Virus record (IMG/VR): IMGVR_UViG_3300029268_000010
Coordinates: 26,516-90,515 of that record
Direction: 5' to 3' (one strand)
Source of the DNA: a virus
DNA length: 64,000 nt
This document shows, one piece after another, positions 51,584-52,186 of the stretch. Each line of letters opens with the position of its first letter. Within the stretch, counting starts at the first letter, position 1. The notes under the pieces are model-generated. The model made no database searches. It had not been told where the DNA came from and saw only the letters and a list, made by a program, of their open reading frames with translations. The position numbers were made by a program, and so were the translations under genes.

Positions 51584-52186
51584 TTATTCCATATTAAACA
51601 TATCCATTTGAGGTACTTCTTCTTTTACTGGTGTAGCGGCAACGACTTTCTGTCCATTGGCATTGGTAGAGGTCTTTTCCACTTTACCGGTACCGTCGCA
51701 TACTGCACAGTCAATAGTTTCTTCTGAGTCTTCATCATTAGAATCATAATTAGGATTGTCAATAGATCCTTCACCTTTACAGTTAGGGCATTCGTCTTTT
51801 TCTTCTTCTTTAGGTGTAGGTTTAGAATATTTGTTTGGCTTGGCAGGGGTCTTTGATGTTCCGCTTGTCTTGGCTTCTTTTGCTTTCTTCTCAGCATTGG
51901 TTTTTATTACTGACACCGCACTGTCAAGTTGTTTTTTAAAGAAGTCCATATTATTCAGCGCTGAGTTAATTTCAGCGATAGGATTTGCCATGGTATTCCA
52001 GAAGTCATTCTCCAACTCTGCAGGAGTTCCATTCATTAATAATGGAGGAATGACTACGCTCTCTGCTTCTTTAGGGATGCAGGGGATGATCATGACAATA
52101 AGTTTGTCTTTTGTCTTGGTAATTCTGATATCAATGGAGTTATTAACGCTCAGTAGCGAATCCATTTTTACAAAGAATTGTTCCAT
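51584..52186 (-). CDS. PRTRC system protein E with C-terminal CxxCxGxG Zn finger
   Basis: FF..., IPPL...GTPAELE.DF signature. CPNCKGEG/CAVCDGTG. Terminal QMDMF. Confidence 0.85.
   Translation of the reverse strand: MEQFFVKMDSLLSVNNSIDIRITKTKDKLIVMIIPCIPKEAESVVIPPLLMNGTPAELENDFWNTMANPIAEINSALNNMDFFKKQLDSAVSVIKTNAEKKAKEAKTSGTSKTPAKPNKYSKPTPKEEEKDECPNCKGEGSIDNPNYDSNDEDSEETIDCAVCDGTGKVEKTSTNANGQKVVAATPVKEEVPQMDMFNME

Follow-up and report, generated by a model that had tools for sequence, protein, structure and literature searches.

The PRTRC cassette of the phage

The window analyzed here is a 64,000-nucleotide stretch of viral DNA (bases 26516-90515 of the 90,515-bp IMG/VR virus record IMGVR_UViG_3300029268_000010; CheckV completeness, 100). 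It contains a PRTRC (ParB-Related, ThiF-Related Cassette), whose protein E carries close to its C terminus the pentapeptide QMDMF, a candidate binding motif for the beta sliding clamp (DnaN). The protein E gene is the first of a series of closely packed genes that runs on the minus strand from 52186 to 46341 and encodes protein E, the ubiquitin-like (Ubl) protein C, a 399-amino-acid (aa) open reading frame (ORF), the E2-like protein B, the E1-like ThiF protein, a DnaN-like clamp, an 88-aa ORF, and a PAPS-reductase/DndC-like protein. The features are listed in Table 1. The cassette belongs to a minus-strand early/replication module that also contains the gene for a DnaB-type helicase.

Table 1. 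Features of the PRTRC locus and of candidate clamp clients, in window coordinates
Feature	Position	Strand	Evidence or remark
DnaB-type helicase gene	59330-60901	-	same module as the cassette
PRTRC protein E gene, 200 aa, stop codon included	51584..52186	-	TIGR03741 E=8e-14; PF19556 E=2.1e-18, model positions 3-128 of 175
Conserved N-terminal domain of E, aa 1-110	51857..52186	-	AlphaFold2, 71-sequence alignment, pLDDT 84-98 per 10-residue block
Lineage-specific 2x CxxCxGxG zinc-knuckle-like insert in E linker, aa 133-166 (C133, C136, C160, C163)	51689..51790	-	PF00684 DnaJ_CXXCXGXG E=3.7e-4, 21.1 bits, below the 32.7-bit cutoff
QMDMF pentapeptide, candidate beta-clamp-binding motif, aa 193-197 of E	51596..51610	-	codon-by-codon check against the raw sequence
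PRTRC protein C gene, ubiquitin-like (Prok_Ub), 69 aa, ends in Gly	51372..51581	-	TIGR03738 E=9.4e-19; PF14454 Prok_Ub E=1.2e-22
399-aa ORF at the protein F position of other cassettes	50192..51391	-	position only, no family match
PRTRC protein B gene, E2-like, maximal ORF	49492..50358	-	PF14460 Prok-E2_D E=5.3e-19; TIGR03737 E=1.3e-20, below its cutoff
PRTRC ThiF-family E1-like gene, maximal ORF	48741..49838	-	TIGR03736 E=3.1e-71, 239.5 bits (cutoff 144.75)
DnaN-like sliding clamp gene, 461 aa	47359..48744	-	TIGR00663 E=6.7e-13; PF00712 E=1e-6; PDB beta clamp 8dt6 E=2.5e-7
Acidic C-terminal extension of the clamp, 45 aa	47362-47496	-	ends PDDPFIT
PAPS-reductase/DndC-like gene, two genes after the clamp	46341..47099	-	PF01507 E=1.2e-12
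QLILEL, exact C terminus of the DndC-like product	46344-46361	-	hexapeptide clamp-binding pattern
184-aa ORF ending in QIQLKL	42781-43335	-	no Pfam match

Protein E and its tail

The 200-aa translation ends in ...EEVPQMDMFNME; its C terminus reads ...KVVAATPVKEEVPQMDMFNME and is followed by the stop codon (51584-51586), and the end that includes the pentapeptide is ...VKEEVPQMDMFNME. The sequence-only reading had taken this ORF for PRTRC protein E and had placed QMDMF at its end. Both statements were confirmed, the first by TIGR03741 (51.5 bits; cutoff, 37.95) and PF19556 (67.1 bits; cutoff, 26), which both scored above their cutoffs, and the second by the agreement of the translation with a codon-by-codon reading. 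The pentapeptide is followed by N-M-E and the free C terminus.

The N-terminal domain of E was predicted by AlphaFold2 to consist of a helix (aa 4-11), a beta-hairpin (strands 17-25 and 28-36), a third strand (49-53), and a helix of about 50 residues (55-107). In the 71-sequence alignment, this domain was 17 to 32% identical between the homologs and the phage protein, and F5, P48, G53, E57, and F62 were near invariant. A Foldseek comparison of the domain with the PDB gave no match at E<=0.001, and with VIA-align wide only the long helix (aa 67-111) was matched, to coiled coils (Z <= 5.9). The lack of a fold match does not show that the domain has a new fold.

No secondary structure was predicted past aa 107, and the predicted local distance difference test score (pLDDT) was 42 to 68 over aa 111-190 and 75 over the last 10 residues, so that QMDMF is placed in a disordered tail. 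Between the N-terminal domain and the motif are a Lys-rich linker (aa 96-132; 27% Lys), the insert with two CxxC pairs, and a short T/A/V-rich spacer. Lys-rich linkers recur in the alignments of E homologs. The zinc-knuckle-like insert was modeled with pLDDT below 50, and at least one homolog (P0091) has another Cys-rich insert at the same site.

Comparison with known clamp-binding motifs

Natural clamp-binding motifs (CBMs) have the form Q-phi-x-[L/M]-[F/L] or Q-phi-x-[L/M]-x-[F/L], as described in passages of PMC11139829. The same passages state that the Gln raises affinity and is not essential, that substitutions at position 2 are tolerated but costly, and that many of these motifs are followed by acidic residues or a free carboxylate; the examples given are the internal QADMF of Pol III alpha, QLVLGL of Pol IV, QLNLF of Pol V, and QLSLPL of Hda. 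QMDMF conforms to this published definition, and in QMDMF-NME there are a nearby acidic residue and the carboxylate. The tail of E shares with known CBMs a Q-x-x-[L/M]-F pentapeptide that is located in a disordered terminus and flanked by acidic residues or a carboxylate, and its QMDMF differs from the internal motif of Escherichia coli Pol III alpha by one residue, at position 2. The carrier is different: E is a component of a Ubl-conjugation cassette and not a polymerase, repair factor, or initiation factor.

Within the phage proteome the motif is rare. The strict pattern Q.[SDNE][LM]F occurred twice in the 29,563 residues of 91 nonoverlapping ORFs, and a relaxed CBM pattern was found in the last 20 residues of three of these ORFs (E, the DndC-like protein, and the 184-aa ORF).

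The tail was also compared with the C-terminal tip of single-stranded DNA-binding protein (SSB), which is an acidic run followed by a terminal I-P-F on an OB-fold protein. This candidate was rejected: the tail ...EEVPQMDMFNME has no P-F tip, and the N-terminal domain is made of three strands and long helices without a match to a solved fold. Some E homologs end in an acidic run followed by F or W.

Conservation of the motif among E homologs

A set of 1.84 billion cluster representatives was searched exhaustively with HMMER; 228 proteins matched at E<=0.001, and 150 of them were listed. Eight of the listed matches aligned to the zinc-knuckle stretch of E only. These eight and the query were dropped, leaving 141 homologs among the 150 matches listed (clusters at <=50% identity) for tail statistics. 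Other routes gave little: a word-index homolog search with E returned E itself only, E alone gave 14 pattern matches against viral contigs, none of which was confirmed, and tblastn of E against 50,697 phage records gave no match.

The tails of the homologs are mutually unalignable, and the phage tail cannot be aligned with them. A short motif was nevertheless shared by many tails. [LIMV]F occurred in the last 15 aa of 44 of the 141 homologs (9.0 +/- 2.8 expected from 1000 shuffles; maximum, 18), and [SDN][LIM]F occurred anywhere in the tail of 66 (6.2 +/- 2.4 in shuffles; maximum, 16), a 10-fold excess. Addition of the Gln preserved the excess, with Q..[LIM]F in 31/141 tails (2.8 +/- 1.7; maximum, 8) and Q.[SDN][LIM]F in 19/141 (0.4 +/- 0.6). 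Six control motifs ([LIM]Y, [LIM]W, F[LIM], [SDN][LIM]Y, F[LIM][SDN], and F[LIM]..Q) were at or below expectation in the same tails.

The position preferences were read from 81 motif instances, in which F at position 0 was fixed by the search pattern. Position -1 was L in 66, M in 9, and I in 6 instances; position -2 was S in 45, D in 17, and N in 9, that is, one of these three in 71/81; position -3 was most often G (35), with P in 11 and L in 5; and position -4 was Q in 21 and E in 18. The share of Q at position -4 (26%, 21/81) compares with 7.9% Q over all tail residues. The family consensus is [Q/E]-G-S-L-F, which is CBM-like and not canonical.

Among the E proteins from named phage and plasmid records, 10/14 had an LF-type motif, one ended in GLDLPI, one ended in ASLW, and two were without a clear motif; terminal examples were SLFD, NLFA, ELF, and DELF. 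Further instances were PQADLF in Tunicatimonas, AGSLF and QMQMF in Phocaeicola, and EGSLF and QIRMF in Parabacteroides. The enrichment in the tails, together with these instances on named replicons, indicates that the PRTRC_E tails carry a conserved short linear motif that is real and not due to chance.

In the long E proteins of the Bacteroidota type, QGSLF is found at a fixed site near residue 166, and several of them have a second, later motif (QMQMF, QMRMF, QIPMF, or QIRMF). The phage QMDMF resembles this second motif, as does PQVDMF of homolog P0050. A third conserved peptide, (E)Y(P/I/L)DFP(E/Q/A), was observed near the C terminus of long Bacteroidota-type E proteins (L005:8850-9812, L014:468-1538, and many long homologs, e.g., P0016, P0022, and P0045), and it suggests that these tails may have several docking sites.

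The phage clamp

The DnaN-like protein aligned along its whole length with 26 DnaN proteins of the Bacteroidota type (23 to 27% identity), with 23 invariant columns, among them Y294, V297, I298, P299, M416, and P417 of the phage protein. The PDB clamp 8dt6 matched its domains I and III, and the DnaN hidden Markov model (HMM) matched in the N-domain. By these alignments, the protein is assigned as a divergent, full-length DnaN with large insertions in domain II and an acidic C-terminal extension. It keeps YPRYEAVIP and the C-terminal strand LMMPIAEW, which correspond to pocket elements, and its peptide pocket is presumably intact. The PDDPFIT ending of the extension is reminiscent of acidic protein-docking tails; the extension might fold onto the clamp itself or attract partner proteins.

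A cofold of the clamp (aa 1-420) with the tail of E (aa 161-200) gave a median score of 0.35, and the control, in which an unrelated 383-aa protein took the place of the clamp, scored 0.45; the comparison speaks neither for nor against binding.

Other candidate clamp clients

The DndC-like protein, which ends exactly in a hexapeptide clamp-binding pattern (Table 1), is a second candidate client of the clamp. Among its close homologs, 8/119 had terminal CBMs (0.9 +/- 0.9 in shuffles; maximum, 5), on extensions that end in QLDLF, QLSLF, QLELF, QLALF, QMSLF, QAALF (twice), and QIKLVL. On Vibrio and Alteromonas plasmids, PAPS-reductase-family proteins encoded a few kilobases from PRTRC end in ...QLSMDLEMFIEG (QLSMDL..) and ...NQLVMAI. 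This recurrence suggests that clamp docking may be a repeated add-on in this gene neighborhood, which adds to the plausibility of a functional motif in E. On the speculative analogy with PCNA ubiquitylation that is discussed below, the phage clamp gene would be the hub of a small cluster of clients, with E docking through QMDMF and the DndC-like enzyme through QLILEL. Besides E and the DndC-like protein, only the 184-aa ORF of the phage has a CBM-like C terminus.

dnaN genes near PRTRC cassettes in other replicons

A clamp gene was found at three further PRTRC loci. In Aeromonas caviae pFAHZZU2447_NDM, dnaN lies between the PRTRC ParB and E genes (ParB-dnaN-E-C-...-ThiF); in Xanthomonas pICMP7383.1, it is directly upstream of the PRTRC ParB gene (dnaN-ParB-E-C-F-B-A-ThiF); and in the Pseudomonas aeruginosa megaplasmid pBJ86, it is 3.8 kb downstream of ThiF. 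The HMM scan of the examined loci detected no other dnaN in the flanks, and none was found near the PRTRC of Novosphingobium pLA4 (+/-15 kb) or of phage Dina (+/-7 kb). Whole-record searches of ten further PRTRC plasmids located dnaN elsewhere on three (Vibrio, Rhodanobacter, and Rhodoferax) and none on seven. In this census of 13 plasmids, chosen for taxonomic spread from the 370 PRTRC records, 6/13 thus carried their own dnaN, compared with 465/72,556 plasmid records overall (0.64%; the 465 matches include some mislabeled chromosomes).

The PRTRC ThiF gene was present in 370/72,556 plasmid records. Its counts by genus were close to those of plasmid DnaN in Pseudomonas (141 PRTRC ThiF and 126 DnaN records), Xanthomonas (23 and 23), Aeromonas (13 and 15), Vibrio (19 and 12), and Shewanella (8 and 8). 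Burkholderia (32) and Cupriavidus (21) had PRTRC without a matching DnaN count, and Citrobacter (78) and Providencia (26) had plasmid DnaN without PRTRC. The overlap of the two sets is at the level of genus counts, in which related plasmids are counted many times; seven accessions were individually confirmed in both.

The DnaN proteins of PRTRC plasmids differ greatly among themselves. The Xanthomonas query retrieved 66 records, none from Pseudomonas, and the Pseudomonas query retrieved 465. This divergence hints at separate acquisitions or fast evolution.

Other replication-related genes were observed at some of these loci. On the Xanthomonas and Rhodanobacter plasmids, ssb directly follows the PRTRC E1 gene (L010:16028-16630 and L009:15853-16437), and a Tunicatimonas plasmid has umuD and a Y-family polymerase gene 5 kb downstream, together with a second Ubl system composed of multiubiquitin, ThiF, and DUF6527 (L003:12975-14769 and L003:15059-17259).

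Composition of the phage cassette

The phage cassette, in the order E-C-x-B-ThiF (minus strand, 52186-48741), follows the canonical PRTRC order E-C-F-B-(A)-ThiF, as in Ralstonia phage Dina and in plasmids. E lies directly upstream of the Ubl gene in every cassette examined, and in the phage the protein C gene starts 2 nt past the E stop codon. At the other end, the E1 gene overlaps the DnaN-like gene by 4 nt (ATGA), with the E1 stop codon and the clamp start codon sharing bases. The homologous part of the E1-like maximal ORF is aa 115-364, and the true start of protein B is probably downstream of the start of its maximal ORF.

In six-frame searches of the 90.5-kb phage genome, PRTRC ParB (TIGR03734) had no match at E<=1, and protein F (TIGR03742) had no match; the ParB model was detected in 9 control genomes. 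Protein A (JAB type; TIGR03735) had no match in the phage, and the same model was silent in all 14 control genomes. The 399-aa protein at the F position had no NCBIfam or Pfam match and no similarity by BLASTP to the protein at the same position of the Parabacteroides cassette. Two Bacteroidota cassettes (Tunicatimonas and Parabacteroides) have the same reduced five-gene form, with no ParB beside E.

PRTRC corresponds to TIGR03734 to TIGR03742 and to operon type 6d of Iyer, Burroughs, and Aravind (2006; Table 1 of PMC1779556), for which a Ubl, a JAB protein, an E1, an E2, and an alpha-helical protein are listed. Neither protein E nor a clamp is mentioned in the available passages of that source, whose text does not contain the word "replication." The phage cassette resembles the type system in having E, C (Ubl), B (E2-like), and ThiF (E1-like) in canonical order. 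It differs in that ParB is not detectable, the protein at the F position is unrecognizable, the linker of E contains a zinc-knuckle insert, and the E1 gene is followed by a translationally coupled gene for a DnaN-like protein.

Discussion

Protein E may be a two-part tether, in which the N-terminal domain (aa 1-110) belongs to the PRTRC Ubl cassette, which comprises Ubl protein C, E2-like B, and E1-like ThiF, and the linker bears QMDMF at the C-terminal end. QMDMF would insert into the hydrophobic peptide pocket of a beta sliding clamp, either the phage DnaN-like protein or the host DnaN. E, and via E the Ubl machinery or its products, would thereby be placed on clamp-loaded DNA that is being replicated or repaired. 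From the motif and the gene context, we consider it rather likely that the tail of E binds a clamp and tethers the PRTRC module to the DNA-loaded clamp. A clamp-like tail peptide, a similar peptide in relatives, and frequent nearby clamp genes together argue that the PRTRC gene set probably works at replicating DNA.

Several points weigh against clamp binding by E. With the strict CBM pattern Q[LIVMA].[LM][FL], which requires an aliphatic residue at position 2 and in which M counted as phi, only 9/141 tails matched (2.5 +/- 1.5 in shuffles), and the shuffle maximum was also 9, so that this enrichment is marginal. The family consensus departs from the canonical motif at position 2, which is Gly in 35/81 instances, and in about three-quarters of instances also at position 1, which is Q in just 21/81 and E in 18/81. 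Peptide studies described in passages of PMC11139829 found that Gly at position 2 lowers affinity and that a Q-to-E change lowers it greatly. By analogy with these peptides, many members of the E family would be weak clamp binders or may bind something else. The phage protein itself has no counterpart of the QGSLF position of its Bacteroidota relatives, and its QMDMF is three residues short of the C terminus rather than terminal. The AlphaFold2 model of the phage clamp was poor (mean pLDDT, 56.6; domain II, below 50), too poor for inspection of the pocket or the ring. As for gene context, 7/13 PRTRC plasmids had no dnaN of their own, and the large size of PRTRC plasmids by itself raises the chance that replication genes are present. 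The Pseudomonas records represent one plasmid family, and the counts are therefore not independent events.

The sequence-only reading had named conservation of a terminal QxxLF-like motif among E homologs as a check. The relaxed LF motif was strongly enriched (31/141 and 66/141), and the strict definition only marginally. Because of this marginal enrichment, and because Gly (position 2) and Glu (position 1) are both reported to weaken peptide binding, the family motif is classed as CBM-like only, and the phage QMDMF, by its sequence, as CBM conforming.

In a first alternative, the likeness to CBMs would be superficial and the LF motif would bind something other than the clamp, either a host factor or one of the PRTRC proteins (E1, E2, the protein at the F position, or, in cassettes that have it, ParB). 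The noncanonical consensus and the marginal strict enrichment are in line with this, as is the further peptide (E)YPDFP of the long Bacteroidota forms, from which E clearly hosts several docking peptides. The motif is also kept in cassettes on replicons without dnaN; every host supplies a clamp, however, so the lack of dnaN on a replicon is no argument against clamp binding. The enriched positions (Q at -4, S/D/N at -2, L/M at -1, and F at 0) are those that define clamp motifs, at least three replicon types that are unrelated to each other have dnaN within or adjoining the cassette, and the motif is still kept in the phage, in which ParB is not detectable. We consider this alternative, which is the main one, unlikely.

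A second alternative accepts clamp binding and assigns E another role than that of an E3-like adaptor: E could be the main Ubl substrate, modified on its Lys-rich linker, or a competitor that displaces host polymerases or other clients from the pocket. The high Lys content of the linker and its recurrence in homologs would suit a substrate, as would the invariable position of the E gene immediately upstream of the Ubl gene. Mobile-element proteins that exploit the clamp are known, judging from passages on phage Mu MuC (PMC12867686), Tn7 TnsE (PMC12153342), Tn3-family TnpA (PMC11417375), and insertion sequence (IS) transposases (PMC3971601). As would be the case for E, these accessory proteins of phages or mobile elements are coupled in their activity to replicating DNA by a peptide that docks on the clamp. 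As far as those passages describe them, they differ from E in being transcription or transposition factors, none of which is part of a protein-conjugation system. For competition alone, E would have no need of a conserved domain of 110 aa that strictly co-occurs with Ubl, E1, and E2. The present data do not separate the substrate and competitor roles from the adaptor role, and we regard these two roles taken together as more doubtful than a nonclamp partner.

That QMDMF is a functionless chance match in a low-complexity tail is very improbable: short motifs arise easily, as the relaxed matches in 3/91 phage ORFs illustrate, and the phage tail is not alignable with those of homologs, but [SDN][LIM]F is present in about half of the 141 otherwise unconserved tails, near-identical instances exist (PQVDMF in P0050; QMQMF and QIRMF in E proteins of Bacteroidota plasmids), and the entire phage proteome contains just two matches to the strict pattern.

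If the tail of E binds a clamp, the cassette invites comparison with the modification of the eukaryotic clamp. PCNA is ubiquitylated by Rad6-Rad18 and SUMOylated via Ubc9-Siz1. The likeness holds for the adaptor reading only, in which a clamp-binding adaptor would bring E2~Ubl to the sliding clamp, as happens with E2~Ub(l) at PCNA. There are also differences: neither Rad18 nor Siz1 is a homolog of E, the phage clamp is a DnaN-type protein, and conjugation to the clamp is purely hypothetical. We put forward only tentatively that E is an E3-like adaptor, that is, a Rad18-like bridge from the clamp to E2~Ubl. The fuller analogy, in which PRTRC would be the prokaryotic counterpart of PCNA ubiquitylation, with a Rad18-like E docking on DnaN and protein B conjugating the Gly-terminated protein C to the clamp or its riders, is somewhat more speculative again. 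In such a scheme, the clamp or clamp-bound proteins would presumably be the target of conjugation, a cassette protein the partner of the N-terminal domain, and the Lys-rich linker a possible Ubl acceptor. The proposal of the sequence-only reading that E docks the Ubl machinery on the coencoded clamp is thus partly supported: the family motif, the fit of QMDMF to the CBM definition, and the repeated linkage of dnaN speak for it, and what speaks against it is the consensus, which is noncanonical at position 2 and in many instances at position 1 as well.

A search of the available literature gave no relevant paper that links PRTRC to the clamp, DnaN to a ThiF/ubiquitin-like system, or clamp-binding motifs to ubiquitin-like proteins of plasmids. 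Judged from a sample of titles, mentions of PRTRC in the literature appear to be annotation only. The link between PRTRC and the clamp is newly recognized, and the cassette itself has been catalogued since 2006.

PRTRC is found on hundreds of large plasmids, on integrative and conjugative elements (ICEs), and on phages, and we know of no function or target for it. E is the one nonenzymatic conserved PRTRC protein, and its docking peptide, together with the repeated capture of dnaN, makes the link to the clamp concretely testable. To our knowledge, targeting of a replication clamp by ubiquitin-like modification has so far been described for PCNA in eukaryotes only. If the proposed clamp binding holds and Ubl conjugates do form on the clamp, PRTRC would be a Ubl modification pathway aimed at the replication clamp in bacteria and their mobile elements, and E would represent a new class of clamp client. 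If the analogy with PCNA also holds, phages, plasmids, and ICEs may use this pathway to reprogram replication or repair on their own DNA.

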